A DNA stretch of 64,000 nucleotides from Granulicella sp. (GCA_035568455.1 DATMOB010000022.1:4733-68732); one strand, 5' to 3'. Counted from the stretch's first letter, positions 12,560-37,008 are shown. A program made the numbers and translations. The notes: generated by a model from the sequence alone, not told the origin.

Positions 12560-13036
12560 CTATTTGGAGGAGCCGCCGTAGACGGCGGGTTCGCCCAGGC
12601 TGCCGGCCTTGGGCAGGTGGCGGATGTAGAGCACCATGTGCCAGATCTCGCGCTCGGAAAAGTCGCCCTTCGAGGGCGGCATGCCGGAGGGCGAGATGCC
12701 GTTCTCGATGATCCACTTGAGCTGGCCGTCGGTGTAGGACTGGACCTCGGCGCTGGCGAGTGAGGGCACGGGCGGGGAGACGGTGGCGGCGAAGGGGACG
12801 CCGGTGTTCTGGCCGTCGAGGCCGTGGCACACCATGCAGTAGGAGGTGAAGAGCTGCTTGCCGTCGTCGATGTTGTCGGCGGCGGGCGGCTCGGGATTGA
12901 TGTCTTTCTTGCCGCCGATGGTGACGTGGTGCTTGGTCCACGAGATGGCTTTGGTCTCGGTGGGGGAGGGTGGCGTGGAGCGACAGCCGGACAGGAGAGT
13001 GACGGCGAGCAGAAGTAGAAATGCGGTGATCTTCAT
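12560..13036 (-). CDS. Monohaem c-type cytochrome (lipoprotein)
   Basis: Lipobox LLSGC, CMVCH haem motif and distal GMP; start at ATG 13036. Confidence 0.88.
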   Translation of the reverse strand: MKITAFLLLLAVTLLSGCRSTPPSPTETKAISWTKHHVTIGGKKDINPEPPAADNIDDGKQLFTSYCMVCHGLDGQNTGVPFAATVSPPVPSLASAEVQSYTDGQLKWIIENGISPSGMPPSKGDFSEREIWHMVLYIRHLPKAGSLGEPAVYGGSSK

Positions 13037-13253
13037 GGATTGGTAATCGGGGGTCGCTACGAGCAAAAGGACAGAGGTAACGGTAAAGGCGAATACAGGG
13101 GCCTCTCCACTCCAGTGCGAGACTGCCCGCTGCTTCGGTCGAGCTGATGTGCTTGTTGCTCGAACTGGTCGTGTCAGAGCGCTGATCGTTAGAGTGCTTG
13201 TCCCCCATCCTATCGCAGCGAGCTTGCGCTCAGATGGGGGACTTGAGGTGGGG

Positions 13254-14732
13254 TCAGGCGATGATGTCGTGAATGACGTTGCCGGCGACGTCGGTGAGGC
13301 GGAAGTCGCGGCCGCTCGAGCGGAAGGTGAGTTTGGTGTGGTCGATGCCCATCAGATAGAGAATGGTGGCGTGGATGTCGTGGACGTGGGCCGGCTTGTC
13401 GACGACCTTCCAGCCGAAGTCATCGGTGGCGCCGTAGGTGATGCCGCCCTTGATGCCGCCGCCGGCGAGCCACATGCTGAAGCCGTGCGGGTTGTGGTCG
13501 CGACCGGCGTGGGTGCCGGCACCGCCGAGTTCGACCACCGGGGTTCGGCCGAACTCCGAGCCGCAGACGATGATGGTCTCGTCGAGCAGGCCGCGCGCCT
13601 TGAGGTCCTTGATCAGTGCGGCGAAGGGCTGATCGGAGTCCTTGGCGTTCTTGCGATGGGCCTGGATGTCCTGGTGCGCGTCCCAGGGATCGCCCTGGGA
13701 GTAGTAGACCTGCACCATGCGCACGCCCTTCTCGATGAGGCGGGCGGCGGTGAGGCAGCCGCGGGCGGTTGAGCCCTCGCCGTACATCTTGATGGTGGCC
13801 TCGGTCTCCTTGCGCACGTCGAAGACGTCGGGCGCCTCGGTCTGCATGCGGTAGGCGGTCTCCATGGAGCCGATGGTGGCCTCGAGCTGAGGATCTGCCG
13901 GGGCGTCGCCGTAGGTCTCGGCCTCGTTGAGCGCGTCGAGCTTCTTGATCAGGTCCAGCTCCTTGCGCTGCTGCTGGATGTCGAAGCGATCGTTGTGAAT
14001 GTTGGGGATCAGCTTGTAGGGGTCGAAGTCCTTTTGTTTGGTGTCGGTGGTGACGTAGGTGGCCTGGTTCACCGCAGGCAGGAAGCCGGCGCTCCAAAGC
14101 GGCGGCCCGACGGTGGTCGGCACCTGCGGGCAGAGCACGACGAAGCCGGGAAGATTTTTGTTCTCTGTGCCGAGGCCGTAGGTGAGCCATGAGCCCATGG
14201 AGGGCCGGCCGATGATGTTGGCGCCGGTGTTCATCATGATGAGGGCGGGCTCGTGGTTGGGGATCTCCGTGTAGACGGAGCGGACAACGCAGATGTCGTC
14301 GGCGCAGGCGCCCACGTTGGGGAAGAGCTCGGAGACCTCGAGGCCGCTCGAGCCGTAGCGTTTGAACTCGAAGGGCGACTTCATCAGGGTGCCGGTCTTG
14401 CGCTCGTGGCCGAGGTCGCCGCCGGGCATCGGCTGGCCGTGGTATTTGGTCAGCATCGGTTTGTTGTCGAAGCTGTCGATGTGCGAGAGGCCGCCGTTCA
14501 TGAACAGGAAGATGACGTGCTTGGCCTTGGGCTTGAAGTTGGGATCCTTGATCATCCAGGGATTGGTCGCGGCGGTGGTGGCTGCGACCGAGCCTGGGTT
14601 GGCGGCGTCGAGGGCCTCGGCCTGGGCGAGCGACTCGCCGATCATGCTGGCGAAGCTCATCATGGCGAAGCCGCCGCCGATCTTGCGCAGGGCGTCGCGG
14701 CGAGTGACGGGTTTCGGCTTTTGACAGGGCAT
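13254..14732 (-). CDS. DUF1501 family Tat-exported protein
   Basis: Tat motif TRRDAL; KAKHVIFLFMNGGLSHIDSFD, RPSMGSWLTYGLG, SEFGRTP, GRDHNP, LAGGGIKGG and RLTDV are typical of DUF1501. Confidence 0.9.
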   Translation of the reverse strand: MPCQKPKPVTRRDALRKIGGGFAMMSFASMIGESLAQAEALDAANPGSVAATTAATNPWMIKDPNFKPKAKHVIFLFMNGGLSHIDSFDNKPMLTKYHGQPMPGGDLGHERKTGTLMKSPFEFKRYGSSGLEVSELFPNVGACADDICVVRSVYTEIPNHEPALIMMNTGANIIGRPSMGSWLTYGLGTENKNLPGFVVLCPQVPTTVGPPLWSAGFLPAVNQATYVTTDTKQKDFDPYKLIPNIHNDRFDIQQQRKELDLIKKLDALNEAETYGDAPADPQLEATIGSMETAYRMQTEAPDVFDVRKETEATIKMYGEGSTARGCLTAARLIEKGVRMVQVYYSQGDPWDAHQDIQAHRKNAKDSDQPFAALIKDLKARGLLDETIIVCGSEFGRTPVVELGGAGTHAGRDHNPHGFSMWLAGGGIKGGITYGATDDFGWKVVDKPAHVHDIHATILYLMGIDHTKLTFRSSGRDFRLTDVAGNVIHDIIA

Positions 14733-14777
14733 GGGCGGATCTCCTGTGGGCGCGATGTACTTAGTTCAAAAAACGGC

Positions 14778-17700
14778 TTAGTTCAGAAACTCGAATTCGT
14801 TGGAGCTGAAGAGGACACGAGCATACTGCTTCCAGGCGGTGAGCGGCTCCTGGTTGACCAGGTAGCCGGGCTTCTCCGGGGTGTTCTTGAGGAAGTCGAG
14901 GCCGGCCTGCAGCTCGGCCGGAGTGGGCACGCGGCCGAAGAGCAGGCGGTAGGCCTCGGTGATGCGGGCGGTGTCGTCGCCCTTGGGGTAGACGCGCGCG
15001 GCGAACTCGCCGGCCTGCTTGTAGACGAAGGAGTTGTTCATGAAGTAAAGCCGCTGCACCGGCACGTTGGTGGAGAAGCGCTGCTCGGCGGTGAAGGTCG
15101 GATTCGGAAAGTCGAAGGCCTGCAAGAACGAGTCGATGCGGAAGCGGCTGACCTTGGCATAGACCGTGCGGCGGTCGTTGTCGAGGCCGAGCTCCTTGGC
15201 CGGGCCGCCGGCATCTTTGGTGTTGAGATCGCCGGCGACGAAGAGCATGGAGTCGCGCAGCTGCTCGGCGTCGAGCCGCTGCAGCGAGAAGTGGGAGTAG
15301 TAGCGGTTGAGGGGATCCTTGACGTGCGCGTCGGCGGTCTCCTTGCTGCTCTGCTGGTAGACCGCGGAGAGCATGATCCTGCGCTGCAGCTGCTTGAGCG
15401 ACATGCCATCCTTCTCGAAGCGGACGGCAAGGTAGTCGAGCAGCTCGGGGTTCGAGGGCGGATCGCCGACCGCGCCGAAGTTGTCGGCGGTGTTGACGAT
15501 GCCGGTGCCGAAGTGCCACTTCCAGACGCGGTTAACCAGGACCCGGCTGGCCAGCGGGCTGGCGACGATGTCGTTGGCCAGCTCGAGCCGGCCGCTGCCC
15601 TGGGTGTAGGGCTTCTTGTCGGGTGCGCCGAGCACGGTGAGGAAGCCGCGAGGGATCATGTCGCCGTGGGCGTGCGGGTTGCCGCGCAGGTCGAGTGCGA
15701 TGTTGACCGCCTGGGGCTTGTCCGCCAGGCCGTGGACGAAGGGATAGATCTCGTCGACCTTCTTGACGTTCGAGCCGCCGCTCTGCAGGGCGGTGAGGTA
15801 GGCCTGTTCGGCGGGGCCGAGGCGGCGGACCAGCTCCCAGCCGCGGAAGACGAAGAGGCCGGGCAGGCCGCGCTCCTCGAAGATGCCGGTGCCCAGCTGG
15901 CGCACGAAGAGATCCTCGTAGAGGTTGGCCTTCTCCGGGGCGATGACCTTGAGCTCGAGCGTGCAGCCGGGGCAGAACTGGTCGTAGGTGTCGAAGTCGG
16001 AGGGCTTGACATCCTTGGCGCGCTCGGTGGGGACGCCGGCCTTGGCTTTGATCTTCTCGTTCTCGTCGTCGACGGCCTTCTCTTCGACCTCAAGGTCGAG
16101 GATGCGCTGCTGGAAGGAACTGGCGAGGAATTTGGCCTGATCCTCGGTGCCGCCCTGGGCGATCATGAGCTGCCAGTCCTTCAGGTAGGGATAGAAGAGC
16201 GGCTTCTTGGCGAGGAAGGCGATCCAGCGATCGAGCAGCTCGGGATCGAGACGGTCTTTATCCGCGGCCTCGTCCACCTTCATCTTGGGCTTGCCGGCGA
16301 CCCTCCAGGCCGCGACCATGTAGGCGGAGGACTGGGCGGCGAGCGCCTTGGCCAGCTGCTGGGCGGCGGTCTTGGTGTACTCCTGGGCGGCCTCATCCTT
16401 GTCGTTGGCCTGCTTGAAGCGCTGACGCCAGAACTCGACCTCGGAGTCGGGGACGAAGTTGTACTCCTTGTAGGTGGAGCTGGCGAAGACGCCGCCGAGC
16501 GCGTAGTAGTCCTTGGCCAGGATGGGATCGTACTTGTGATCGTGGCAGCGGGCGCAGGCAACGGTCAGGCCGAGGAAGCCGCGGGTGACGGCGTCGATGC
16601 GCTCGTTGCGCTCGTCGGCGCGGCCCTGGATGGGCTCGGCCTGATCCCAGATCCAAGGTGCTCCGCCGAGGAAGCCGGTCCCCTTAAGATCGTCGGCGGT
16701 GGGGTTCTTGCTCAGCAGGTCGCCGGCGAGCTGCATCTTCACGAACTTGTCGTAGGGGACGTCGTCGTTGATCTGTTTGATGACCCAGTCGCGGTAGACC
16801 CAGGCGCCGTCGAGCGGCATGTAGCCGCGGCCGCGGGGATCGAGGCCGCGGATGTCGTCGTCGCCGTAGCGGGCGACGTCGAGCCAGTGCCGGCCCCAGC
16901 GCTCGCCGTAGGCCGGGGAGGCGATCAGGCGGTCGACCACCTTGGCGAAGGCGTCGGGCGAGGGGTCCTTCTCGAAGGCTGCAATCTCCTCGGGCGTGGG
17001 CGGCAGGCCGGTCAGATCGAGCGTCGCCCGGCGGATCAGGGTGCGCTTGTCGGCCATGGGAGCGGGCGTCAGGCCCTTCTCGGCGAGGTTGGCCAGGACA
17101 AAGCGGTCGATGTCGGTTTTTGCCCAGGACTTCGAGGCAGGGTCCTTGAGGACGGGGACGGCGGGGTCCTGAAGCGGAACGAAGGACCACCACTTGCGCA
17201 TGTCGGGCGTGATCTGTTTGCCGGTGCGGACAGGGGTGGTGCTCTGCGGCCAGGGCGCGCCCATGCGGACCCAGTCGGAGAGCGCCTGGATCTCGTCGGC
17301 GGAGAGCTTGGCTCCCTTGGGGGGCATCTTGAGGTCGCCGGTCTGGTGGACAGCGGTGAGCAGAAGGCTCTTTTCGGGGTCGCCGGGCACGATGGCGGGG
17401 CCGGAGTCGCCGCCCTTGAGGATGGAGGCGCGGGAGGTGAGGCTGAGGCCGCCCTTGGCGGCGTCCTGGTGGCAGCTGCCGCAGGAGTTGGCGAAGATGG
17501 GGCGGATCTTGTTCTCGAAGTAGTCGTCGCCGGGCGTACCTTTGGCCTGGGCGGAGGTGAGCAGCGCGACCACCGGCTGGGCAGCCTCTGCGCTATCCCA
17601 GGCAGCGCCGCGACGGACCCACTCGACTAGATTGGCGATGTCGCCGTCGGCGAGCTTCTCGCCCTTGGGGGGCATCTTGAGGTCGCCGGTCTGCTGGATG

Positions 17701-18071
17701 GCCTCGATGAGCAGGCTCTTCTCGGGCTTGCCGGGAACCACCACCGGGCCGGAATCGCCTCCCTTGAGCAGAGCGGCGTGGGAGTCGAGCCGGAGGCCGC
17801 CGGCGGCCTCGGTGGTATGGCAGCGGTAGCAGCTCTGGGCCAGGACGGGGCGAACCTTCTGGGTGAAGAACTGGGTGCTGTCCTCGGCCCCGGAGTCAGC
17901 TGCGGATGGGCTTGTGGCTGTGCTCCGCGCTGCGGCTGAACTGGAGGCGGCTGCGGTCGTCTTCTCCTGCGCAGAGGCCGTCGTGGAGTGGCTCTCGGTC
18001 GAAGCCACGGTGGCGAATGCGGCCAAAGCACAGAGGGCGAGAGTGCGGGCAGAGTTCGAGATAGGACTCAC
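14778..18071 (-). CDS. PSD1/planctomycete cytochrome C protein (two PSCyt1 domains, DUF1549, DUF1553)
   Basis: CxxCH motifs CYRCH, CGSCH and CARCH; LIRRATLDLTGLPPT, YGERWGRHWLD, RVLVNRVWKWHFGTG, RLDAEQLRDSML and RVLFSSNEF. The GTG start at 18071 overlaps the ATPase TGA and is followed by a signal peptide. Confidence 0.9.
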   Translation of the reverse strand: MSPISNSARTLALCALAAFATVASTESHSTTASAQEKTTAAASSSAAARSTATSPSAADSGAEDSTQFFTQKVRPVLAQSCYRCHTTEAAGGLRLDSHAALLKGGDSGPVVVPGKPEKSLLIEAIQQTGDLKMPPKGEKLADGDIANLVEWVRRGAAWDSAEAAQPVVALLTSAQAKGTPGDDYFENKIRPIFANSCGSCHQDAAKGGLSLTSRASILKGGDSGPAIVPGDPEKSLLLTAVHQTGDLKMPPKGAKLSADEIQALSDWVRMGAPWPQSTTPVRTGKQITPDMRKWWSFVPLQDPAVPVLKDPASKSWAKTDIDRFVLANLAEKGLTPAPMADKRTLIRRATLDLTGLPPTPEEIAAFEKDPSPDAFAKVVDRLIASPAYGERWGRHWLDVARYGDDDIRGLDPRGRGYMPLDGAWVYRDWVIKQINDDVPYDKFVKMQLAGDLLSKNPTADDLKGTGFLGGAPWIWDQAEPIQGRADERNERIDAVTRGFLGLTVACARCHDHKYDPILAKDYYALGGVFASSTYKEYNFVPDSEVEFWRQRFKQANDKDEAAQEYTKTAAQQLAKALAAQSSAYMVAAWRVAGKPKMKVDEAADKDRLDPELLDRWIAFLAKKPLFYPYLKDWQLMIAQGGTEDQAKFLASSFQQRILDLEVEEKAVDDENEKIKAKAGVPTERAKDVKPSDFDTYDQFCPGCTLELKVIAPEKANLYEDLFVRQLGTGIFEERGLPGLFVFRGWELVRRLGPAEQAYLTALQSGGSNVKKVDEIYPFVHGLADKPQAVNIALDLRGNPHAHGDMIPRGFLTVLGAPDKKPYTQGSGRLELANDIVASPLASRVLVNRVWKWHFGTGIVNTADNFGAVGDPPSNPELLDYLAVRFEKDGMSLKQLQRRIMLSAVYQQSSKETADAHVKDPLNRYYSHFSLQRLDAEQLRDSMLFVAGDLNTKDAGGPAKELGLDNDRRTVYAKVSRFRIDSFLQAFDFPNPTFTAEQRFSTNVPVQRLYFMNNSFVYKQAGEFAARVYPKGDDTARITEAYRLLFGRVPTPAELQAGLDFLKNTPEKPGYLVNQEPLTAWKQYARVLFSSNEFEFLN

Positions 18072-19099
18072 GGTGTCTCTCCGTCGTGTCGGTCTTGTCC
18101 GTCTTGTCTGTATTGGGGGCCCTGAGTCTCGTCGATTTCTGATGCGCGATCGCCGCGGGAGAAGTGCTCGATGTGGTCGACCAGGTTGAGAAACTCCTCG
18201 CCGTGGGTGCGCAGGCTCATGCCGCCTGCGGCCGGGTTGTTGTTGGGAAGCTTCAGATCGAGCGCGACGCGGGAGCCGCAGTGGTCCTCGCGGCCGGTGC
18301 GGGCGAGCACGATCACCCGGGTGCCGAGGAAGAGCGCCTCGGCGGTGTTGTGGGTGACGAAGACCACCGTCGGGCGGGTCTCGCTCCACACCGAGCGCAG
18401 CAGCCGCTGCAGGCTGGCGCGGGTGGCGGGATCGAGCGCACTGAATGCCTCGTCCATGAGCAGAACGCGGGACTGCATCATCAGCGCCTGGGCGATGGCC
18501 ACGCGCTGCTGCATGCCGCCGGAGAGCTGGTGTGGATACTTGTGCGCGTCGGAGGGCTCGAGTCCCATGTGGGCGAGCTGCCGGTAGGCCTCCTCGTGAA
18601 TGCGGCGGCGGAAGGCGCGGAAGCTCGGGCGCAGCCGGCCGAGGATGTGATACTTCGAGGTCTCGGGCCCCATGGCCAGGTTCTCGAGCACGGTGCGGTC
18701 GGGGAAGAGGGAGTACCGCTGCGGCACGTAGCCGGAGCGGGCATCGACGCGTTCGACGGGCGATCCGGCGACGTGAATCTGACCGGAGGTCGGGCGCTCC
18801 TGGCCGAGGATCATGCGCAGCAGCGTGCTCTTGCCGCAGCCGGTCTCGCCGAGCAGGACGACGAACTCGCCCGGCTCGATGTCGAGCGAGATGTCTTCGA
18901 GCACGGTGCGTCGGGCGTTCTTCTTACCGCCGCGGGCGCTCTTCAGTGCGTAGGAGACGACTACATTCTGGATGCGGATGGCGGCGGCGCCTTCTGGCTG
19001 GACGTGGGGATTCGCCCCCGCGACCTCGACCCTGGGATTGGTCTCCGGGAGGTCCTCATTGGGGCTCTTCAACTCGGGCGCGCTCAAGCCTGAAACCAT
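18068..19099 (-). CDS. ABC transporter ATP-binding protein (TauB/SsuB-like)
   Basis: GETGCGKS Walker A, LSGGMQQR signature and LLMDEAF Walker B. Confidence 0.93.
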   Translation of the reverse strand: MVSGLSAPELKSPNEDLPETNPRVEVAGANPHVQPEGAAAIRIQNVVVSYALKSARGGKKNARRTVLEDISLDIEPGEFVVLLGETGCGKSTLLRMILGQERPTSGQIHVAGSPVERVDARSGYVPQRYSLFPDRTVLENLAMGPETSKYHILGRLRPSFRAFRRRIHEEAYRQLAHMGLEPSDAHKYPHQLSGGMQQRVAIAQALMMQSRVLLMDEAFSALDPATRASLQRLLRSVWSETRPTVVFVTHNTAEALFLGTRVIVLARTGREDHCGSRVALDLKLPNNNPAAGGMSLRTHGEEFLNLVDHIEHFSRGDRASEIDETQGPQYRQDGQDRHDGETP

Positions 19100-19947
19100 G
19101 GATGTAACCTCCTATTGAGAACACGCAGCGACCAGTCGATAAGGAAGAGCAGCAGGGCCACCCAGAGCACGTAAGGCAGAATGACGTCCATGCCCATGTG
19201 GCGGCGCATGATGGCGATGCGGTAGGCCAGACCATCCGAGGCGGCGATCATCTCGCCGGCGAACAGAAACAGCATCATGGGCTTCAGATTCAGCCTCAGG
19301 CTGTTGATGACCTGCGGGAGGATCTGGCGGAAGACGACGCGATAGGCGACGTCGAAGTTGTTGGCGTCGAGCGTGAAGGCCTTGACGATCTGCTCCTCGG
19401 GGACGGCCTTCACCATCTGGGTGACGTCGAGGATCATGGTGGGAGCGACACCGATGACGATCAGCGCGATCTTCGACCACTCCTCGATGCCGAAGACGAT
19501 GAACAGAATCGGAAGCAGAGAGAGCGCGATGATCTTGTCGAAGAAGAGCACGAAGCGCAGGAAGCCGGCGCCGAACCAGGGGAAGAGGCCGATGTGCAGC
19601 GCGAGGATCACAGCCGGAACCAGAAGGCAGAGGCTGATGAGGAAGCGGCGCCCGCTCGAGGCGGTGTCCTTCCAGATCATGGAGTGGTGCAGCCGCTCCC
19701 AGGTGCTGGCGTCCTCGGCGGGGATGTAGTCGTCCTCCTCGGCGGGCTCAAGCACGGCGGAGCGAATGCCGGCGGCGAGCTGGCGGGCGTTGGGGACGAC
19801 GCGGTCCTCAGGATTCTCGCGATGACGGCTGATCGAGGTCTGCGTGTACAGGCCGATGCAGACGACGAAGAGCAGGCAGGAGAGCGCCTGGGCGAACAGC
19901 CGGTTCGGCCGCGTTTGAATGTCGAAGGGATTCGCTAGATTCGCCAT
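19084..19947 (-). CDS. ABC transporter permease of the urea-carboxylase-associated type
   Basis: Multiple TM helices; lies between the SBP and ATPase; C-terminal GEMIAASDGLAYRI...RRHMGMDVILPYVLW. Confidence 0.9.
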   Translation of the reverse strand: MANLANPFDIQTRPNRLFAQALSCLLFVVCIGLYTQTSISRHRENPEDRVVPNARQLAAGIRSAVLEPAEEDDYIPAEDASTWERLHHSMIWKDTASSGRRFLISLCLLVPAVILALHIGLFPWFGAGFLRFVLFFDKIIALSLLPILFIVFGIEEWSKIALIVIGVAPTMILDVTQMVKAVPEEQIVKAFTLDANNFDVAYRVVFRQILPQVINSLRLNLKPMMLFLFAGEMIAASDGLAYRIAIMRRHMGMDVILPYVLWVALLLFLIDWSLRVLNRRLHPWFQA

Positions 19948-19953
19948 GGCGAG

Positions 19954-21197: not shown

Positions 21198-21252
21198 ATA
21201 GAGAATGCCTATGGAAAAGGATTTGTCTATCGGGAGAATAGAAAAATTCAAT
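21198..21252. promoter_or_regulatory. Three LysR-type ATAG-N7-CTAT boxes in the divergent intergenic region
   Basis: ATAGAGAATGCCTAT (21198-21212), AAAGGATTTGTCTAT (21216-21230) and ATAGAAAAATTCAAT (21238-21252). Confidence 0.55.
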
Positions 21253-21418: not shown

Positions 21419-22477
21419 ATGTCTTCTTGGATCGACGATTGCAGGCGGTATACGGGTTGGGTACGGGCTGGTGCAGTCCTCGCGACGGCCGCCTTGGTTC
21501 TGGCAGGGTTCGCAGACGCGCAGCAGCAGGCTGCCGCTCCGGCAACGCCCGAGGCTACCCGCGTTCGGCCGCCCCGGGTGGTGAAGCCCGGGGTGAAGAC
21601 GCCGGGCGTGCAGCGTCCCTTGAGCGAACTGCATCCGCAGGTGGTGTTTCCGGTGGCGGGCTCGCCGGACTGGTCGGTGATGACCAAGGACGCGGTCTGG
21701 ATCACCAGTGCGCGCGCAAACCAGGTGGTGCAGCTGCTGCCGGCGACGGGCAAACCGGGCCTGATGGTAGACATTCCGCGTCCCTGCTCGGGGCTGGCCT
21801 ATGGCTGGGGCTCGGTGTGGGTGCCGAGCTGCGGGTCGCACAAGCTGCTGCGTTTGGATGAGTCGACGGGCAAGGTGACAGCGGAGATTCCGGCCGATCC
21901 GGCGAACTCCGAGGGCGGGATCGCGGTCGGTGCGGGCTCGGTGTGGCTGGTGGCAAAGCCGAGCACGCTGCTGCGTATTGACCCCGAGAAAAATGCCGTG
22001 GTCGCGAGCCTGGAGCTGCCTTCCGAGTCGGAGAACCCAGCCTTCGGCGATGGATATATCTGGGTGTCGTCCTTCGGACATGGACAGCTCTTGAAGGTCG
22101 ACCCGAAGAGCAATCGCGTAGTCGACAGCATTGCCGTGGGGCCGCAGCCGCGCTTCCTCACGGTCGGTGCGGGCGCGGTGTGGACGTTGAACCAGGGCGA
22201 TGGCACGATCTCGCGGGTCGACATGAAGACCGATAAGCTGGTGGCGACCATTGTGTGCGGCATCCCGGGCACGGGCGGCGATATCACCTTCGGCGCTGGC
22301 TCTGTGTGGGCTACGCTGTATGACTTTCCCCTGACCCAGGTCGACGCCAAGACGAACCTGCCGGTGAAGCAGTGGGCGGGCAAGGGCGGGGATGGATTGC
22401 GCTTCGGATTCGGATCATTGTGGCTTTCGAACGGCGGCCAGCAGAACGTCTGGCGTATTTCACCGGAACAGAAATAA
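21419..22477 (+). CDS. Secreted beta-propeller protein (Vgb lyase/YVTN-like)
   Basis: Signal peptide and repeated GxGSVW/GxGAVW blades; first gene of the uca operon. Start placed at ATG 21419. Confidence 0.8.
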   Translation: MSSWIDDCRRYTGWVRAGAVLATAALVLAGFADAQQQAAAPATPEATRVRPPRVVKPGVKTPGVQRPLSELHPQVVFPVAGSPDWSVMTKDAVWITSARANQVVQLLPATGKPGLMVDIPRPCSGLAYGWGSVWVPSCGSHKLLRLDESTGKVTAEIPADPANSEGGIAVGAGSVWLVAKPSTLLRIDPEKNAVVASLELPSESENPAFGDGYIWVSSFGHGQLLKVDPKSNRVVDSIAVGPQPRFLTVGAGAVWTLNQGDGTISRVDMKTDKLVATIVCGIPGTGGDITFGAGSVWATLYDFPLTQVDAKTNLPVKQWAGKGGDGLRFGFGSLWLSNGGQQNVWRISPEQK

Positions 22478-23987: not shown

Positions 23988-23997
23988 AAGGAGCTTG

Positions 23998-29471: not shown

Positions 29472-29476
29472 CGGAA

Positions 29477-29524: not shown

Positions 29525-29534
29525 GATGGCTGAG

Positions 29535-30257
29535 TTACTGCTCATCCTCCCCGTCGTCCTTGTCCGCCGGTTTTTCATGCGCCTTCTTTGGCTTGTAGCG
29601 GCCGGCGAGGACGGCATCGAGGGTGGAGAGCATCTCCGGCGAATCGGGCGTGACGTCGGGGTCAAGTCGGGCGATGACCTTGCCATTCTTATCGACGAAG
29701 AACTTGGTGTAGTTCCAGTGCACGTCGCCCCCGGCCGGTGCACCCTTGCTCTTGGTGAGATAGAGATAGAAGGGAATTGCCTCCTCTCCAGTCAGCTTCG
29801 AGACTGCCATCACGGGGAAGTTGATCTTGGCATCGGCGTAGGCCTTCTGAATCTCGGCCTCGGTGCCGGGTTCGGAGGCGCCGAAGTCATTCGACGGAAC
29901 TCCTAGGACGACGAGGCCCTTATCTTTAAATGTTTCACTCAGTTTGACCAGAGCCGGAAGCTGGGCGCTGTAACTCGAACCGCGCGCCAGGTTCACGACC
30001 AGCAGGTACTTGCCTTTGAAGTTGGCGAGAGGAACGTCTTTGCCGTCGGCGCCAGGGAGGTTGTAGTCGGAGGCGGTCTTTTCGGGCTTGGCGGCCTTTA
30101 CCGCATCTCCCGGTGCCGTCGCATGCTTCTCTTTTCCTTGCGGCTCGGAATCATGCGTGGGTTTGGGCTGCGAGCAGAGGCCCTGGCTCGCAGCGAGTGC
30201 GAGCAGCAGGCATAGTTTGTACGCTCCATGCGATCGCTTCCCCAGCTGGTTTGGCAC
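29535..30257 (-). CDS. Exported glutathione-peroxidase-like protein lacking the catalytic cysteine
   Basis: GPx fold motifs VVNLARGSSYSAQL, GVPSNDFGASEPG and WNYTKFFVDKNGKV; signal peptide; Cys occurs only in the N-terminal signal region. Confidence 0.85.
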   Translation of the reverse strand: MPNQLGKRSHGAYKLCLLLALAASQGLCSQPKPTHDSEPQGKEKHATAPGDAVKAAKPEKTASDYNLPGADGKDVPLANFKGKYLLVVNLARGSSYSAQLPALVKLSETFKDKGLVVLGVPSNDFGASEPGTEAEIQKAYADAKINFPVMAVSKLTGEEAIPFYLYLTKSKGAPAGGDVHWNYTKFFVDKNGKVIARLDPDVTPDSPEMLSTLDAVLAGRYKPKKAHEKPADKDDGEDEQ

Positions 30258-30436
30258 TTGGTTGCTCCTGATGCGGATGATCGAATCTCCTATGGATCGA
30301 GCTCTCGTCTTCCAAATAGCAGACTGGATGTTGCGAACGTCACTTCGAGAGCGCTCGACCGGCTGGAGTTTGTGTTAGAGGTAGTATCCGCTAGTCGGCG
30401 GCATTCTGCGAACTGAAATACGAAGGTTGAGGCTTT

Positions 30437-30473
30437 ATGTGTTTCCTCTATCTGCAGCATGAAAACTGTCTAT
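30437..30473. promoter_or_regulatory. Two LysR-type boxes between the gpx-like gene and lysR
   Basis: ATGTGTTTCCTCTAT (30437-30451) and ATGAAAACTGTCTAT (30459-30473), 22 bp apart; TGTCTATCG is shared with the 21216 box. Confidence 0.45.
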
Positions 30474-30629
30474 CGCACTGCCCAGTGAATTCAGGGGCTC
30501 CTTGTCCTCTTCTCGATGCAAACCAGTGAATCGCAAGCGGTTGCCCGCGCTCTGTAAGTGAGACTTGGCGGCTGCTAGAATCGTCTCCATACCCGTACCC
30601 CGCATCTCAAAAAAAACATACAGGCGAAA

Positions 30630-31529
30630 ATGGACATTGATCAGCTGAAGACTTTCCTTGAGGTCTCCCGTCAGAAGAGCTTTTCGCGTGCTGCGGAGAA
30701 GCTGTACATTACGCAGCCCTCCATCTCGGCCCAGATCCGCGCACTCGAGACCTATCTGGGGCATCGGCTGTTCGAGCGTGGTGGCGGCAAGGTGACCTTG
30801 ACGGCGGCGGGACGGGTGTTTGAGCCCTTTGCCGAAGATTGCCTGTCGCGCTTGAATCACATGGTGTTGGCGATGGCGGACCTGGAGCGATCGCCGCGCG
30901 GCGCCCTGAGCGTGAGCGCAAACGATTCGACCGCGCTGTATGTGCTGCCCGTGTTCTTCAGTAAATTTCGCAAGCAGTACCCACGGGTCGCGCTGAATAT
31001 CGTGCGCGCGGAGCGCACCAAATCGCTCGAACTGGTGCTCGACCGTGAGGTGGACTTCGGTGTGGTCTCTCTACCGCTCAAAGACCAGCGTCTTCATGTC
31101 GAGGTCGTCCATAAGGATGAACTGGTTCTGACCGTTCCGGCGGGCCACCCGTTGGCGAGTCATGAAATCGCCTCCTTGCAACAGGTGGCGCAGCACCGGC
31201 TACTGCTGCCGAAGCAAGGTCGGCGTCGCGAGCAGCTCGATGATCTGTTTGCGCAGCAGAAGCTGATCCCTCGCATCGGCATGGAGCTGGATTCGAACGA
31301 ACTTTTGAAACGTCTGATCTTGAAGGAGATGGGCATCGGATTTCTGCCCAAGATCAATGTGCTGGAGGAGTTGCGCGCCGGTACGTTGAAGGTTATTCCA
31401 ATCGAAAACGTCGAGATATCCCGCGATCTGGCGCTGATCAGCCGCAAGGATCGCGAACTGACGCGTGCCGGCAACGCCTTTTTTACCTTCGCAACCGGGA
31501 ATGTCCGGCCAGCGCCGAACGAGCTCTAG
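30630..31529 (+). CDS. LysR-family transcriptional regulator
   Basis: HTH SFSRAAEKLYITQPSISAQIRALE...LFER plus an effector-binding domain; 299 aa. Confidence 0.95.
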   Translation: MDIDQLKTFLEVSRQKSFSRAAEKLYITQPSISAQIRALETYLGHRLFERGGGKVTLTAAGRVFEPFAEDCLSRLNHMVLAMADLERSPRGALSVSANDSTALYVLPVFFSKFRKQYPRVALNIVRAERTKSLELVLDREVDFGVVSLPLKDQRLHVEVVHKDELVLTVPAGHPLASHEIASLQQVAQHRLLLPKQGRRREQLDDLFAQQKLIPRIGMELDSNELLKRLILKEMGIGFLPKINVLEELRAGTLKVIPIENVEISRDLALISRKDRELTRAGNAFFTFATGNVRPAPNEL

Positions 31530-32061
31530 TCTAGAGTCGCCACCAAATTAGTGCGGCAGAGTAGCTCTCTGGGCATGCCTGTCGCCCCGCGGCGGTTAAT
31601 CACCAAGAGCGCGAAGTGCGGCACCGTTTGAACTGTCCCGCAGTTGGATGGCGCTGCGGTCCTCGATCGTAACGCCATCGAAATCTTCTATGAGCGCGAT
31701 AGGGCGGGCGCGGATGCGATTGCTATGTCCGTAGTTCCTGCGCATAATCGACCTCGCAACCCTGCACCCATCAAGCCTCGCACGAGCCTCGCATAATCCT
31801 CGACACAACGCAGGAGCAAGCTTCTCTATGTAAGTGGGCCAATATTATTTGTTCCATCACCATTCCCTGGGCTCGCGCTCAAGGTTTCGGTCTCTTTCTG
31901 TCTCTCTGTGTTGCAGTGCGATCGGTTACCGACGCATCTGCGCTTTCCCGGCCTGATTTACAGCTCTCGAGCGGAACTAGCGTTCCTCTTGAAGCCCCAA
32001 ATCGAACACGCGCCCTCCGGTGTGAGACCGGATCGGGCAGCGATGTCGAAGTCGAAGTTAG

Positions 32062-35000
32062 ATGGAGATAATCTTGAGAATCTTCCGTGTACTCGCTTCC
32101 TGGGCAGTTTTCTTGTTGATGCCGTCCGCTTTGTTTGCTCAAGGCAATACGACATCTCTAAGTGGTGTTGTCACCGATCCTTCGGGTGCAGCCATCGCCG
32201 GTGCCTCCGTCACGATTCTCGATTCGGCGATGGGCACAAGCAAGAACGAGTTAAGCAAGTCGCATGGAGAGTTCGAGTTTCCCCAGATTGCTCCAGGTCA
32301 CTATGCCCTGACCGTCAGTTTTCAGGGTTTCTCCGATCAGCAGCAGAATCTGGAGTTACTGGTGGCATCACCATTGAAGGTGAATATCAAGATGAGCGTC
32401 GGTGCTGTGGAGACGGTCAGCGTCGAGGCCGCGGCGATGACGGTCAACACCACGGACGCGACCCTGGGAAAGGCGTTCAACAGCGCTCAGGTGCAGAATC
32501 TGCCGTACCTCGCTAACAATGTCACGTACTTGCTCTCGCTGCAACCTGGCGTGCTTGCGCTCGACAGCGGCGCGCAGACCGGCGGACTCAATACAGATAC
32601 ACGCACCGGTATCGTGAATGGTGCACGGCAGGACCAGACCAACATCTCGCTGGACGGCGTGGATAACAATGACCAGATCTTCGGCTATGCCTTCAATGGC
32701 GCATTGCGCTCGACACGCGACTCGGTGGAGGAGTTCCGGGTCACCACGACCAATGCCAATGCGGACTCCGGACGCTCCTCAGGGGCCCAGGTCTCGCTGG
32801 TTACGCGTAGCGGAACTAACACCATCCACGGAAGCGCATATGAGTATTATCGCGATCCTGGCACGACCTCCAATAACTGGTTCATTAAGCAGGCGCAACT
32901 GAGTTCAGGGCAGCCCAACATCGCGGCCAAGGTCTTGCAGCATACCTATGGCGGATCGCTGGGACTTCCAATCATCAAAGATAAGCTGTTCTTCTTCGGG
33001 GCATATGAGGGGTTCAAGCAGGCGAGTGATATTCCGGTCGGCGAAGTCGTGCCATCGATCATGGGCGGCGGCGGTCTCGTTACCGGCAATGTAACCTACG
33101 AGGCTTGCCCCACCTCCGCCACCTGTCAGAACGGAACCACCTATAAAACGCTCACACCGGCAGACATCGCACAGCTGGACGGGCGATCTTCCGACCCAGC
33201 CTGCGCGAACGCGACCTGCTACGCCCCGAGCACCAACGCCGCAGCGCTCGCCTATTTCAAGCAGTTCCCCCTGTCGAACTCGAACGGAGCGGGCGACGGG
33301 TATAACACTGGGGGTTACAACTTCACGTCGCCGGCGCCGCTGCACCAGATTACGAACATCGCTCGCGTGGACTACAACATTAATCGGAAACAGTCGCTCT
33401 TTGTGCGGGGTAACCTGCAGAGTGACAATCAGGCGACAGCGCTTCAGTTTCCCGGTCTGCCCGCCGCCGCCAACATCTTCGGGAATAACAAAGGCATTGC
33501 AGTCGGCCATATCTGGTCGATCAATGACCGGATGACGAACAACGCACGCTATGGCTTTACCCGCCTGGGCAACGCATCCCGGGGTACCGGAAGTCAGCCC
33601 TACATCAGTTTCGCTGCCTTCAGCACTCTCACCGCGGCGACGACTACGACCCTTTATAAGGTCACGACCAACAACTTCTCCGACGACTTTACCTACACCA
33701 AGGGAAGACATACGATCCAGGCCGGCGCGAACCTTTACTTGCTGTCGAACGGGCAGTACTTTGACGCGCCTTTGCTCTCGTACGCGAATGTAAGCCCCAA
33801 CCTGTTGGCGACCGCTGCCATCGCGAATCAGGGCGGAAGTCTGGACCCGGGCGCCTTCAACTGCGCCAATTGCGGGACGGTCTCCGCTGGCTTCTCGAAC
33901 TTCTACAATCAGGCGATCATCTCCAACGTCGGCGCGATCGAGACCGCCAACTCCGGGACAGAGTTTAGTGTGCAGAACAACACGCTTGCTCCTCTGGGGG
34001 CGGGTGTCGTGCCAACCCACACCTTCCGCAACGTCGAGCAGGAGTATTACCTGCAGGACCAGTGGAAGGCCACCTCGCAGTTCACGTTGACCTTCGGTCT
34101 GCGCTATGTCTATCTCGGTGTTCCCTACGAGAAGAACGGGCAGCAGATCGCGCCCACCATCCCGCTCGACACCTTCCTTGCAAATCGCGCAACTGCAGCT
34201 GCCGCCGGTACCTCATATGACACGCGCGTCTCCTTCCGCGCCTCCGGTTCTCCGAATGGCCAGCCGAACTTCTGGAACGCGCAGAAACTCAACCTCGCTC
34301 CACGCATTGCGTTCGCGTATGCCACGCGGGACAACAAGACCTCAGTTCGCGGCGGCTTCGCTCTCTCGTTCGACCATTTTGGCGGGGCCGTAATCGACTC
34401 CTACCAGTCGAACCCACAGTCGCTGCTGTCGCTTTCGCAAACCAATCTTGCGCCCTACACGGATATCAATTCGAATCCACGTTTTACCGGCTATCATAAC
34501 GTTCCGGCGGTGGCCGGAGCCACTGGCGCGCTGCAGTTGCCGTATACGCCCGTGGATAGCCCGTTCACCTTCGACTACAGCATCAACGACCAGCAGAAGA
34601 CTCCCTACGCGGAGACCTTCAACCTTACTCTTGAGCACCAACTGCCGCACAATCTGGCGATCACCGCCTCCTACGTCGGACGCCTGGGACGCCATCTTAT
34701 CGAGAACCTCGACGTCGCCCAGCCCACCAATCTGTACGACCCAAAGAGCGGCCAGACCTACTTCCAGGCGGCCACTGCCTTCGACAAGATGGTTGACGCG
34801 GGGATCTCTCCCGGGAATGTTCCTGACACCGGCTACTTTCACAACATCTTTCCGAACTTTAGCTATGGCAGTTATGTAGGCGCCCAGGCCTACTATGCTG
34901 TCTTTGCGAACAACCGTGGCAACGAAACCAATGCGCTTTACGCTGCGGATACTGACCCGACCGTCTCTCCGGGGGGGCAGAGCAACCGCTTCTTCTTTCC

Positions 35001-35832
35001 CCAGACCTCCTCGATCTACGCTCAGTCCAGCATTGGGACCAGCAACTACCACGCCTTGCAACTTTCGATCCGCCAGGCTCTGCGGCATGGCCTGGAGTAT
35101 GACGTGAACTACACTTACTCCAAGTCGATGGACGAAGGCTCTGATCCAGAGCGGGGCGCAAGCACCAGTGGTCCCAATAACGGAAGTCTGATCATCAATA
35201 CCTTTGGTCAGCATCAGATGTACGCGGTATCTGACTTCGATGTCCGCCACAACATCACCGCCAACTACACTGCGCCGCTTCCCTTCGGCAAAGGAGCGTT
35301 GCTGCTGAACAAGGGCGGTCTGCTGGACATGTTCGTGGGTGGATTTCAGTTGAATGGAGTCGTCCACTACAGCACCGGATTTCCGTTCAGCGCCGTGGCC
35401 CAAAACACCTACGGAACCAACTTCGCGTTCTCCAGCAACATGGTCGCGACCGGACCGATTCCAACCGGTGGACATCACTATGTGGCAGGCAATCAGACCG
35501 AGACCTCTCTGAAGGGAATCACCTCTGCCCAGGCGCACGCGAACCTGCGTTTCGCCTATGTCGGGGACAGCGGCCAGCGCAACAACTTCCGCTCTGACGG
35601 CTATCTGTCGCTGGACGATGGATTGGCAAAGTCGTTCCACACCTTCGGCGAACAACAGCTGCGACTCTCGGTCGAGGTCTTCAACGTGCTCAACACCAAC
35701 CGCTTTGCGATTGTGCAAAACGACGGCACCAGCGGCAACTTTGGGGTGTATCAGAATGGAACACCCTCCAACCCAAACGCTCTCCTGGTGCAGCCGCGCC
35801 AGATGCAGTTCTCGGGTAAGTACATCTTCTAA
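32062..35832 (+). CDS. TonB-dependent receptor (Oar-like, N-terminal carboxypeptidase-regulatory-like domain)
   Basis: Signal peptide, LSGVVTDPSGAAIAGASVT, LDGVDNND, VEEFRVTT, TRSGTNTIHGSAYEY, YLQDQWK, NLAPRIAFAY and terminal PRQMQFSGKYIF. Confidence 0.92.
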   Translation: MEIILRIFRVLASWAVFLLMPSALFAQGNTTSLSGVVTDPSGAAIAGASVTILDSAMGTSKNELSKSHGEFEFPQIAPGHYALTVSFQGFSDQQQNLELLVASPLKVNIKMSVGAVETVSVEAAAMTVNTTDATLGKAFNSAQVQNLPYLANNVTYLLSLQPGVLALDSGAQTGGLNTDTRTGIVNGARQDQTNISLDGVDNNDQIFGYAFNGALRSTRDSVEEFRVTTTNANADSGRSSGAQVSLVTRSGTNTIHGSAYEYYRDPGTTSNNWFIKQAQLSSGQPNIAAKVLQHTYGGSLGLPIIKDKLFFFGAYEGFKQASDIPVGEVVPSIMGGGGLVTGNVTYEACPTSATCQNGTTYKTLTPADIAQLDGRSSDPACANATCYAPSTNAAALAYFKQFPLSNSNGAGDGYNTGGYNFTSPAPLHQITNIARVDYNINRKQSLFVRGNLQSDNQATALQFPGLPAAANIFGNNKGIAVGHIWSINDRMTNNARYGFTRLGNASRGTGSQPYISFAAFSTLTAATTTTLYKVTTNNFSDDFTYTKGRHTIQAGANLYLLSNGQYFDAPLLSYANVSPNLLATAAIANQGGSLDPGAFNCANCGTVSAGFSNFYNQAIISNVGAIETANSGTEFSVQNNTLAPLGAGVVPTHTFRNVEQEYYLQDQWKATSQFTLTFGLRYVYLGVPYEKNGQQIAPTIPLDTFLANRATAAAAGTSYDTRVSFRASGSPNGQPNFWNAQKLNLAPRIAFAYATRDNKTSVRGGFALSFDHFGGAVIDSYQSNPQSLLSLSQTNLAPYTDINSNPRFTGYHNVPAVAGATGALQLPYTPVDSPFTFDYSINDQQKTPYAETFNLTLEHQLPHNLAITASYVGRLGRHLIENLDVAQPTNLYDPKSGQTYFQAATAFDKMVDAGISPGNVPDTGYFHNIFPNFSYGSYVGAQAYYAVFANNRGNETNALYAADTDPTVSPGGQSNRFFFPQTSSIYAQSSIGTSNYHALQLSIRQALRHGLEYDVNYTYSKSMDEGSDPERGASTSGPNNGSLIINTFGQHQMYAVSDFDVRHNITANYTAPLPFGKGALLLNKGGLLDMFVGGFQLNGVVHYSTGFPFSAVAQNTYGTNFAFSSNMVATGPIPTGGHHYVAGNQTETSLKGITSAQAHANLRFAYVGDSGQRNNFRSDGYLSLDDGLAKSFHTFGEQQLRLSVEVFNVLNTNRFAIVQNDGTSGNFGVYQNGTPSNPNALLVQPRQMQFSGKYIF

Positions 35833-35851
35833 ACACGATCGTCGAGAAAGG

Positions 35852-35888
35852 CTGGCGCGCTCCTGAACTGAGGAGCGCGCCAGTTCTT
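35852..35888 (+). terminator. Intrinsic terminator after the TonB receptor
   Basis: 13-bp perfect stem CTGGCGCGCTCCT/AGGAGCGCGCCAG with a 6-nt loop, followed by TTCTT. Confidence 0.7.
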
Positions 35889-35935
35889 GTTAGATGGCTT
35901 GTCACCTCGTATATTCAACTGATACTTGTAAGCAT

Positions 35936-35971
35936 TACTTCCAACCACTACTTCCAACGATTACTTCCAAC
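35936..35971. repeat. Three TACTTCCAAC direct repeats with 13-bp period
   Basis: Copies start at 35936, 35949 and 35962, just upstream of the MBL hydrolase RBS. Confidence 0.8.
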
Positions 35972-35988
35972 CTAGGACTGAGGGACAC

Positions 35989-37008
35989 ATGTCGAAAGTT
36001 TCTATCGTAAGAGCCAGCATGGTGGCGATGCTCTGCCTGTCTTCGTGCGTGGCAACCTTGGCGCAGCTTCCGGAACCGGATGGAGGGACGATTGAGCGCG
36101 GCACGCTGCCCGCCCGCTGGCTCTCCCAGGGTTCGAAGTGCATGGAGATTCCCGAGTGGCAGGTGCATGAGTACAACCCGAACTTCTTCATCCTGCGGCA
36201 GTCCCCCTGCACCGACTACGAGAAGCCGTTCGTGTTCCTCTTCTTCGGCAAGGACAAGGCATTGCTGGCGGATACCGGATCGCGCAACGGCAACATTGTT
36301 CCTGCGATTCAACTCACGGTCAAGAACTGGTTGGCACGCAACGGGCGCACAAGTATTCCTCTGCTTGTGGTGCATACCCACGAGCACGGAGACCATATCT
36401 GGGGCGACAAGGCGCTGCAGGCGATGAACGATCCTGCGATCCCGGTCACATTCCTGCCGGCGGAGGTCGAAGCCAGCAAAAAATTCTACGGCATCGAGCA
36501 CTGGCCAACCGACATCGGCCATGTCGATCTGGGCGGCCGCGTGATCGACGTGATTCCCATTCCAGGACACAGCGTGGCCAGCGTGGCCTTCTATGACCGG
36601 AATACGGCCGTCCTGCTCTCTAGCGACAGCCTCTATCCCGGCCGCCTTTACGTGCAGGACTTTGCCGCCTTCCAGGCCAGCACGGAGCGGTTGATCGAGT
36701 TCACCAAGGACAAGCCGGTGGCCTACGTTCTGGGCAATCATATCGAGGAGACCAGCACGCCGTTTCTCGACTATCCGGTGGGCACGATGTATCAACCGCA
36801 CGAACATGAACTCGCCCTATCGCGCGGAGCGCTGCTGGAGTTGGAGGATGCTCTGCTGTCCATGCACGGCGAGCCGCAAAGGGTGGCGCTGCGCGACTTC
36901 TCGGTCTGGCCCAGGGGAGCGAAGTTCTCTAAGCCCGGCGACAAGGCGAGCTTCGAGCAGCATGTGAAGGAAGAGAAGGAGCACATGTGGGACCACTCCG
37001 CCCAGTAG
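35989..37008 (+). CDS. Secreted MBL-fold metallo-hydrolase
   Basis: Signal peptide; DTG, HTHEHGDH, PGHS, SDSLY and GNH metal ligands. Confidence 0.88.
   Translation: MSKVSIVRASMVAMLCLSSCVATLAQLPEPDGGTIERGTLPARWLSQGSKCMEIPEWQVHEYNPNFFILRQSPCTDYEKPFVFLFFGKDKALLADTGSRNGNIVPAIQLTVKNWLARNGRTSIPLLVVHTHEHGDHIWGDKALQAMNDPAIPVTFLPAEVEASKKFYGIEHWPTDIGHVDLGGRVIDVIPIPGHSVASVAFYDRNTAVLLSSDSLYPGRLYVQDFAAFQASTERLIEFTKDKPVAYVLGNHIEETSTPFLDYPVGTMYQPHEHELALSRGALLELEDALLSMHGEPQRVALRDFSVWPRGAKFSKPGDKASFEQHVKEEKEHMWDHSAQ

Follow-up and report, generated by a model that had tools for sequence, protein, structure and literature searches.

What does a gene pair of unassigned function do next to a pathway whose input and output are known? 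The question is raised by positions 12560 to 37008 of a 64-kb stretch of Granulicella sp. DNA (the whole stretch analysed is called the window below), where genes for guanidine breakdown lie beside genes for an exported PSCyt/PSD1 haem protein and a DUF1501 protein. The PSCyt/PSD1-DUF1501 pair has been known since 2004-2012, and few unexplained protein families of soil and aquatic bacteria are larger. Here, we find that the block forms a single conserved, co-inherited accessory gene cluster, found in Acidobacteriota, in which two units are combined. The first (unit A) is a guanidine importer with its cytoplasmic breakdown pathway; the second (unit B) is an envelope module made up of a large barrel, a metallo-beta-lactamase-fold (MBL) hydrolase, a propeller, PSCyt/PSD1, DUF1501, a glutathione peroxidase-fold (GPx-like) protein without the peroxidatic cysteine, and a small cytochrome c. 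The two units probably serve one physiological process, and our preferred reading, to which we give a probability of roughly 0.55, is that the envelope module makes free guanidine from a precursor and so supplies the importer and the pathway.

Gene content of the cluster

An earlier note on this DNA, made from the sequence alone, had described about 24 kb of contiguous genes with no housekeeping gene inside. Domain scans with Pfam and NCBIfam (bit scores against curated cut-offs; Rfam for RNAs), run on the 64-kb window, bear this description out: 12560-37008 is an unbroken series of 15 intact open reading frames (ORFs), and every gene that the note had named is among them. The genes for cytochrome c, DUF1501, PSD1 and the ATPase, permease and substrate-binding protein (SBP) of an ATP-binding cassette (ABC) importer occupy the minus strand, and the propeller, cgdA, cgdB, carboxylase and allophanate hydrolase (atzF) genes diverge from them, in this order, on the plus strand. 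Beyond the allophanate hydrolase gene follow a convergent GPx-fold gene (minus strand) and then the LysR, barrel and MBL genes (plus strand). The features are as follows.

12560-13066, minus: mono-haem cytochrome c, probable lipoprotein (LSGC lipobox; one CxxCH, CMVCH); Pfam Cytochrome_CBB3/Cytochrom_C
13254-14732, minus: DUF1501 protein exported by the twin-arginine (Tat) route, with a weakly assigned alkaline-phosphatase/sulfatase-type fold; PF07394, E 2e-138
14778-18071, minus: exported PSCyt1-PSCyt1/cbb3-like-PSCyt2 (DUF1549)-PSD1 (DUF1553) protein, three haem motifs; PF07635, PF07583 and PF07587 above cut-off
18068-19099, minus: ABC importer ATPase, NitT/TauT-type; PF00005 and NCBIfam
19084-19947, minus: ABC importer permease; PF00528
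19954-21048, minus: SBP of a carboxylase-associated importer; TIGR03427, 455 bits against a cut-off of 334
21198-21212, no strand: ATAGAGAATGCCTAT, putative LysR-type T-N11-A box in the SBP/propeller divergent promoter region; sole exact match in 64 kb
21419-22477, plus: secreted 7-bladed YVTN/NHL beta-propeller with a conserved Cys pair, first gene of the cgdAB operon; AlphaFold2 model (predicted local distance difference test score [pLDDT], 92), Foldseek, profile against the PDB
22529-23266, plus: carboxyguanidine deiminase subunit, CgdA-type (DUF1989); TIGR03425, 318 bits against a cut-off of 206
23313-23987, plus: carboxyguanidine deiminase subunit, CgdB-type (DUF1989); TIGR03424, 326 bits against a cut-off of 285
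23995-27597, plus: biotin-dependent guanidine carboxylase, Asp704 and Asp952; TIGR02712, 1807 bits
27666-29471, plus: allophanate hydrolase, start reassigned to the ATG at 27666; TIGR02713, 807 bits, and PF21986
29535-30257, minus: exported GPx-fold protein, peroxidatic Cys replaced by Ser and catalytic Gln by Asp; PF00255
30630-31529, plus: LysR-family regulator; HTH_1 and LysR_substrate
31677-31691, no strand: ATCGAAATCTTCTAT, one-mismatch copy of the box ATAGAAATCTTCTAT, upstream of the barrel gene; comparison with the boxes of relatives
32062-35832, plus: large outer-membrane beta-barrel, 1256 amino acids, with an N-terminal CarboxypepD_reg domain (TonB-receptor-like); PF25183, PF13620
35989-37008, plus: secreted MBL-fold hydrolase, HxHxDH motif intact; PF00753

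Linkage of the two units in relatives

The same genes keep company in other genomes. Scanning one genome per species yielded 80 loci with a PSD1 orthologue (53-91% identity), 56 of them with full 10-kb flanks, which were annotated by tblastn with the window proteins. These loci, of Acidobacteriaceae and Bryobacterales, come from Granulicella, Edaphobacter, Silvibacterium, Terracidiphilus, Sulfotelmatobacter-type metagenome-assembled genomes (MAGs) and Bryobacterales, many of them from lichen, peat and soil MAGs. The gene-neighbourhood search that the earlier note had proposed, for PSD1 and DUF1501 beside the carboxylase and its SBP, came out positive: at least one importer or guanidine-pathway gene lies within 10 kb in 49 of the 56 full-flank loci, and over all the genomes compared the two units stay together in two orders and a distant class of Acidobacteriota. 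Presence in these 56 loci runs from the SBP (49), the permease and ATPase (46), the propeller (46, usually adjoining PSD1), the GPx-like gene (42) and the barrel (38) to cgdA (34), the MBL (32), cytochrome c (25, after DUF1501) and LysR (16).

The genes are arranged in at least eight different orders, such as prop<->GPx-SBP-perm-ATPase-PSD1-DUF1501-cytc-MBL-barrel<->LysR or barrel-MBL-GPx-prop<->PSD1-DUF1501-cgdA-cgdB-carboxylase-atzF-SBP; in Bryobacterales, PSD1, DUF1501, barrel, GPx-like, SBP, permease and ATPase genes follow one another on a single strand. A genome of another class (G343) likewise has everything on one strand, in the order barrel, PSD1, DUF1501, propeller, MBL, sodium:solute symporter (SSS) family transporter, second propeller, cgdA, cgdB, carboxylase and atzF. 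The SSS transporter replaces the ABC importer in this genome and the envelope and cytoplasmic modules are both kept, which is hard to explain without a functional connection between them. A restriction of the linkage to a single genome, which the earlier note had named as its refutation, can thus be rejected, since the linkage recurs through rearrangements and an importer swap. The propeller that follows DUF1501 in G343 (locus L088, G343:C2:74000-93999, 6711-9041) carries an extra C-terminal stretch of about 250 residues without a Pfam match.

The limits of the cluster are equally well marked. The eight genes that flank it in the window, a histidine kinase gene included, are conserved in none of the related loci, so that the edges of 12560-37008 coincide with the limit of conserved synteny, and no additional conserved member beyond the window's set occurs in more than 7 of the 80 loci. 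Moreover, the window copy is the only DUF1501 gene of its own 4.0-Mb genome. Multiple paralogues can therefore not account for the adjacency, and a chance meeting amid many PSD1/DUF1501 pairs is ruled out.

At one junction, the two units touch. The GTG start of PSD1 overlaps the TGA stop of the importer ATPase by 4 nucleotides (GTGA, 18068-18071), with a GGAG upstream, and this overlap is kept in 38 of the 44 loci that share the gene order, at 53-91% protein identity. The guanidine importer and PSD1 are thus predicted to be translationally coupled.

Co-occurrence was assessed in a family sample of 401 genomes, with DUF1501 orthologues called at E<=1e-150 and the SBP by TIGR03427. Eight genomes hold both, one the SBP only, none DUF1501 only and 392 neither (Fisher p = 6e-16, uncorrected for phylogeny or physical linkage). 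Of the seven double-positive genomes besides the window's own, six carry the two genes on a single contig with about 6.5 kb between them, and one (G485) has them on separate short contigs. The one SBP-positive genome without DUF1501 (G531) has a differently arranged, more divergent cluster. The distribution of the combined modules is patchy, at about 2% of the family genomes, and in a phylum sample, where cgdB was found in 5 of 401 genomes, the PSD1 module is adjacent in four of the five.

The cytoplasmic unit as a guanidine pathway

Does the cytoplasmic unit act on guanidine or on urea? The earlier note had left this choice open. The carboxylase matches TIGR02712 over its full length (1807 bits against a cut-off of 1304; residues 3-1197 on profile positions 1-1200) and contains the biotin carboxylase, carboxyltransferase and biotin carboxyl carrier protein domains. 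According to a published criterion, guanidine carboxylases have Asp at positions 701 (K. lactis 1330) and 956 (K. lactis 1584) of the TIGR02712 hidden Markov model (PMC11410670; see also PMC12186494), and urea carboxylases have Asn at position 701 (PMC11410670, PMC12186494). We scanned carboxylase fragments cut exactly at D704 and D952 against the model: D704 falls on position 701 and D952 on position 956, so both sites are Asp, and the same Asp/Asp signature is found in 40 of 40 carboxylase orthologues from related loci. CgdA, CgdB, allophanate hydrolase and the TIGR03427 importer are encoded next to the carboxylase, all above their curated cut-offs. CgdAB is required only in the guanidine route. 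The signature together with the presence of CgdA and CgdB identifies the unit as a guanidine carboxylase pathway, leaving the guanidine half of the earlier alternative and dropping the urea half. Unit A would thus bring in guanidine by the SBP-dependent ABC importer and convert it through carboxylase, CgdAB and allophanate hydrolase to 3 NH3 and CO2.

The exported proteins

PSD1 carries three CxxCH motifs, in keeping with the tri-haem cytochrome that had been described, and the small cytochrome c carries one. Sequence and profile searches of the PDB found no solved relative of PSD1 past its cytochrome-like N terminus. An extra small PSCyt1-like cytochrome ORF with a CxxCH motif lies between the DUF1501 and cytochrome c genes in seven loci, and in five loci this place is taken by a small exported ORF that looks cupredoxin-like by eye only; L004 (15256-15666) and L017 (14608-15051) are examples of loci with such an insertion.

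The DUF1501 protein begins with a twin-arginine signal (TRRDAL), as predicted. In profile searches of the PDB it hit only sulfatases and LtaS, weakly (E 0.06-1.3) and on the conserved C-terminal metal-site region. Its AlphaFold model is poor (pLDDT, 57; predicted template modelling score, 0.65; alignment of 20 mostly orthologous sequences), and Foldseek with this low-confidence model returned only sulfatases, LtaS and other structures of the alkaline phosphatase superfamily. An alkaline-phosphatase/sulfatase-type fold is thus weakly indicated, as a fold class taken from a poor model. The many invariant His, Asp and Arg residues, together with the Tat signal, suggest a metal cofactor. A type I sulfatase was considered and rejected: a motif search of the protein found no formylglycine [CS]xPxR motif, and the likeness to sulfatases and LtaS is at the level of the fold only. 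The "periplasmic redox module" of the earlier note needs correcting on this point, DUF1501 itself being weakly assigned to this fold class.

The propeller, confidently modelled as a 7-bladed YVTN/NHL protein, had been called Vgb-like. Its Pfam scan gave no match to PF24684 (Vgb_lyase), and in the profile search of the PDB, Vgb (E 2e-6) came behind YVTN and designed NHL propellers. The top Foldseek matches were the archaeal S-layer propeller 1l0q, BamB, BtuG and YncE, with no specific enzyme among them. A Vgb-type lyase is rejected on these grounds, the nearest structures being nonenzymatic propellers, and the protein is better described as a generic 7-bladed YVTN/NHL propeller.

The MBL protein is very conserved, and its metal ligands (H131-E-H133-G-D135-H136, H194, D213 and H251) are invariant in 22 orthologues; its relatives in the PDB are weak, distant and only glyoxalase-II-like. 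The GPx-like protein has exchanged its peroxidatic Cys for Ser and its catalytic Gln for Asp, both in the window and in 52 of 52 orthologues, as expected of the Cys-less GPx first described, whereas the Trp and Asn are kept. It scores 102 bits against the glutathione peroxidase family cut-off of 270 and is predicted not to be a peroxidase. The presumed TonB receptor matches the outer-membrane barrel family PF25183, OMP_b-brl_4, but a Plug domain was not detected in residues 100-330, even at E<=5.

Putative LysR boxes in place of a riboswitch

Rfam found no guanidine riboswitch in the window, nor in six PSD1-linked loci that represent the main architectures. As a control, the G531 cluster (L086, G531:C1:704000-723999) has a Guanidine-I riboswitch (3830-3932, 95 bits) ahead of cgdA-cgdB and the SBP importer, and no PSD1 or DUF1501. 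Two regulatory types of guanidine cluster thus appear to coexist in one bacterial family.

The LysR protein consists of an N-terminal HTH_1 domain and a LysR substrate-binding domain, and putative T-N11-A operators lie near the barrel and SBP/propeller promoters. The 64 kb contain a single exact ATAG-N7-CTAT box, which lies at 21198-21212 where the SBP and propeller genes diverge; at least one match arose in 14 of 100 shuffles. Among the related loci (1.6 Mb), 33 of 35 exact matches fall into propeller/GPx-or-SBP or barrel/LysR intergenic regions. The recurrent barrel-side box of the relatives is ATAGAAATCTTCTAT, of which the copy at 31677-31691 in the window differs by one mismatch. Similar boxes had been claimed for both divergent regions: the SBP/propeller region has one, and the GPx/LysR region has no copy, the second box standing upstream of the barrel gene instead. 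It is plausible from these boxes that a shared LysR regulon covers the barrel and MBL genes along with the operons for importer and pathway.

About 30 nucleotides downstream of the one-mismatch box is a sigma-70-like site (TTGCTA-17-CATAAT, 31720-31748, plus strand), found by a scan that does no better than chance; the box is possibly placed near -70 of a candidate promoter of the barrel gene. Over the whole scan, promoter and terminator counts were no better than in shuffled sequence, and the scan was therefore not used to define operons.

A proposed route to guanidine and its alternatives

How might the envelope module be tied to guanidine? In the route that we favour, a guanidine-containing or guanidine-yielding compound would enter through the barrel and be processed in the periplasm, by hydrolysis with the MBL protein and/or DUF1501 and with haem-mediated electron flow from PSD1 to cytochrome c. 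Guanidine would in this way be released from a larger nitrogen-rich compound, and the free guanidine would then be imported and mineralized; LysR would sense the precursor, not guanidine itself. That the envelope module carries out the precursor-to-guanidine step is, as a separate proposition, tentative, and we hold it at somewhat less than even odds. It is tempting to go further and to speculate that PSCyt/PSD1, DUF1501, the propeller and the Cys-less GPx form a periplasmic enzyme complex in which a haem-coupled, alkaline-phosphatase-fold metalloenzyme cleaves a C-N (or P/S-N) bond of substituted guanidines; we consider this unlikely. If it were true, Planctomycetes and Verrucomicrobia, with their hundreds of PSD1-DUF1501 paralogues, would possess a large family of periplasmic cleavage enzymes, each coupled to haem and specific for its substrate.

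Several observations weigh against a guanidine-releasing envelope module. Seven of the 56 full-flank loci have no pathway genes within 10 kb, and two more (L009 and L044) have the ABC importer genes and no other pathway genes within that distance. Searching the whole assemblies of these nine located cgdAB about 15-20 kb away in two, on another contig in two and nowhere in five, these five being among the seven. MAG incompleteness possibly lies behind the absence of cgdB from the five assemblies that carry the module; as they stand, they indicate that a GPx-PSD1-DUF1501 core can exist without the pathway. The loci without uca, the carboxylase gene, that were inspected gene by gene keep the GPx-like gene, PSD1 and DUF1501 (L081 also the barrel), which makes this trio the tightest core, and the GPx-like gene is the one most tightly linked to PSD1-DUF1501 (e.g., in L082). 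G279, a genome of 8.8 Mb with 12 DUF1501 paralogues, has cgdAB-carboxylase-atzF genes and, with no linkage to them, a paralogous module of MBL, barrel, DUF1501, PSD1 and propeller. Together with the cgdB-less assemblies, this paralogue suggests that the envelope module is self-contained and usually, not obligatorily, attached to guanidine assimilation. Elsewhere, PSD1-DUF1501 pairs are found in carbohydrate contexts (PMC5615132), so the pair is not guanidine specific. Nor does any family or fold result point to a substrate: PDB searches with the SBP, DUF1501 and PSD1 gave no useful match, the propeller matches only nonenzymatic proteins, the MBL protein has no close characterized relative, and the DUF1501 model is poor. 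The co-occurrence statistic, finally, is inflated by physical linkage and uncorrected for kinship.

Paralogous modules with a second propeller (MBL-barrel-DUF1501-PSD1-propeller-propeller) are seen in L087 (G279:C1:6588000-6607999), L068 (1584-6272) and L074 (2204-6815), alone or back-to-back with the guanidine-linked copy; identities are about 60% for DUF1501 and 45-50% for PSD1. The envelope module appears to have been duplicated and diversified as a unit.

Could the envelope proteins do without a precursor? The barrel, propeller and SBP might capture free guanidine with high affinity, leaving PSD1-DUF1501, the GPx-like protein and the MBL as accessories with structural roles or roles in conditioning or detoxifying the periplasm. 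The guanidine-type carboxylase and SBP agree with such direct capture, as do the resemblance of the propeller to ligand-capturing partners of TonB transporters such as BtuG and the nitrogen-poor habitats suggested by the lichen, peat and acid soil origins of the related MAGs. However, guanidine (59 Da) should cross porins and would leave a 1256-residue barrel unneeded, the catalytic metal motif of the very conserved MBL is intact, haem proteins and a Tat-exported metalloenzyme-like protein are poorly explained by binding alone, and a protein regulator stands in place of the guanidine riboswitch; we therefore regard direct capture as quite unlikely. Quite improbable, too, is a division of labour in which the envelope module acts on the leftover carbon skeleton or on a reactive by-product, for energy or detoxification, while another protein releases guanidine. 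Besides the MBL, propeller and DUF1501, the cluster offers no conserved candidate for such a protein, and it is specifically the guanidine importer to which PSD1 is coupled. What speaks for this division are the c-type haem motifs and the separate cytochrome c, which suggest that electrons are passed to the respiratory chain, the extra PSCyt-like CxxCH ORF of seven loci or the small exported one (cupredoxin-like by eye only) of five, and the company that PSD1-DUF1501 keeps elsewhere with sugar-oxidizing and glycan loci.

Alternatively, the cluster may be a co-transferred island, two unrelated modules acquired as one block and not yet separated, with no functional coupling between them. Its patchy distribution (about 2% of the family genomes), the lower GC content of 30-42 kb with a RepB fragment and a tRNA-Ser at its end, and a module that lacks the pathway in five assemblies and also exists as an unlinked paralogue could all be read in this way. 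Such a history is nonetheless very unlikely given that the adjacency persists through at least eight gene orders in two orders and one further class, that the start/stop overlap of importer and PSD1 is kept at 53-91% protein identity, that the importer type was swapped with both modules kept, and that the promoter boxes are common to both modules while the flanking genes are not conserved. As for urea instead of guanidine as the product fed to the cytoplasm, the NCBIfam labels do read urea carboxylase and urea ABC binding protein, and the transporter standing in for the ABC importer in G343 is of the SSS type, which includes urea carriers; yet Asp at both signature sites, where urea enzymes have Asn at 701, and a CgdAB pair needed only for the guanidine route render this highly improbable.

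Relation to known systems

The closest known relatives of unit A are the guanidine carboxylase operons of Pseudomonas syringae, Raoultella terrigena and Klebsiella michiganensis (PMC12186494), which have the same enzyme set with a TIGR03427 SBP importer and the Asp/Asp signature. The window cluster differs from them in that it has no guanidine-I or -II riboswitch, with a LysR gene and putative T-N11-A boxes in its place, adds seven conserved exported or outer-membrane proteins, and has its importer translationally coupled, as far as the junction indicates, to a haem protein. The guanidine-releasing route that we favour has a precedent in logic: mgdH/mgdL, inside the guanidine carboxylase operon of Vreelandella boliviensis, convert methylguanidine to guanidine (PMC12508155), so that accessory genes of an operon turn a substituted guanidine into the free compound. 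However, mgdH/mgdL encode a 2-oxoglutarate dioxygenase and a lyase under riboswitch control (PMC12508155), whereas the accessory proteins of the present cluster, an outer-membrane barrel among them, are exported members of unrelated families.

The module of DUF1501 and PSCyt1/PSCyt2/PSD1 was defined by comparative genomics in 2012 (Kamneva et al., PMC3542564) and again in 2017 (He et al., PMC5615132), without an assigned function in either case. In Planctomycetes, Verrucomicrobia and Lentisphaerae, as in the window, a twin-arginine DUF1501 protein adjoins a CxxCH-bearing PSCyt1-PSCyt2-PSD1 protein, and a propeller partner is common. There, in contrast, copies of the module number from tens to hundreds, and their surroundings are of a carbohydrate or sulfatase kind or give no context; the genome of the window holds a single copy, tied to a defined small-molecule nitrogen pathway of cultured Acidobacteria. 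Polysaccharide utilization loci of Bacteroidota and the BtuB-BtuG system of B12 capture likewise combine a barrel, periplasmic or surface accessories, an inner-membrane importer and cytoplasmic catabolism under one regulator, with BtuG as a propeller partner. Compared with these, the cluster has no SusD-like protein, no Plug was detected, the propeller is not a lipoprotein, and the end pathway is nitrogen mineralization rather than that of a glycan or cofactor.

Our literature search found no paper that ties a guanidine or urea carboxylase to DUF1501 or PSCyt, and the searchable literature reports no experiment on the PSCyt/PSD1-DUF1501 pair; we found no description there of a guanidine carboxylase cluster to which an envelope module centred on PSD1-DUF1501 is added. 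The first functional context that the earlier note had hoped to give the pair thus stands as a defined genomic context, namely conserved linkage to the guanidine pathway, and the note's interpretation is borne out in part. With a single-copy PSD1-DUF1501 pair beside a pathway of known input and output, in cultured strains, the unexplained pair becomes testable: the cluster is present in the cultured, genome-sequenced Granulicella sp. 5B5, G. mallensis X5P3, G. paludicola DSM 22464, G. rosea DSM 18704 and Silvibacterium bohemicum S15. In the published proteome of Granulicella sp. 5B5 (PMC7315648 supplement), every replicate yielded the carboxylase, CgdB and allophanate hydrolase and most yielded CgdA; PSD1 and LysR were each seen a single time, at the limit of detection. 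Locus tags and masses in that proteome agree with the gene order recovered for strain 5B5, whose cluster spans G5B5_06620-06690 of CP046444.1. The cluster is therefore expressed in culture, a result that is silent on co-induction. More broadly, the cluster points to an unrecognized nitrogen-acquisition route for bacteria of nitrogen-poor peat, lichens and acid soils and bears on the origin of the guanidine that feeds the widespread carboxylase pathway, whose natural sources are an open question (PMC12186494).

Sequences around the cluster

At lower positions in the window, on the minus strand, are an Lhr-type large helicase gene (2245-7266, 1673 amino acids), unrelated to the cluster, and a large sensor kinase gene (8904-12323; Reg_prop propellers, Y_Y_Y, HisKA_3 and HATPase), which is the next gene downstream of cytochrome c and has the same orientation. 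The kinase was considered as a cluster member and ruled out, as none of the 56 related loci carries it. On the other side, the GC content falls from about 0.65 to about 0.57-0.58 across 30000-42100, a stretch that spans the LysR, barrel and MBL genes and closes with small hypothetical ORFs, a RepB-primase fragment (41256-41687) and a tRNA-Ser(CGA) gene (41974-42065) just before queG. This low-GC stretch may be the edge of a horizontally acquired segment.

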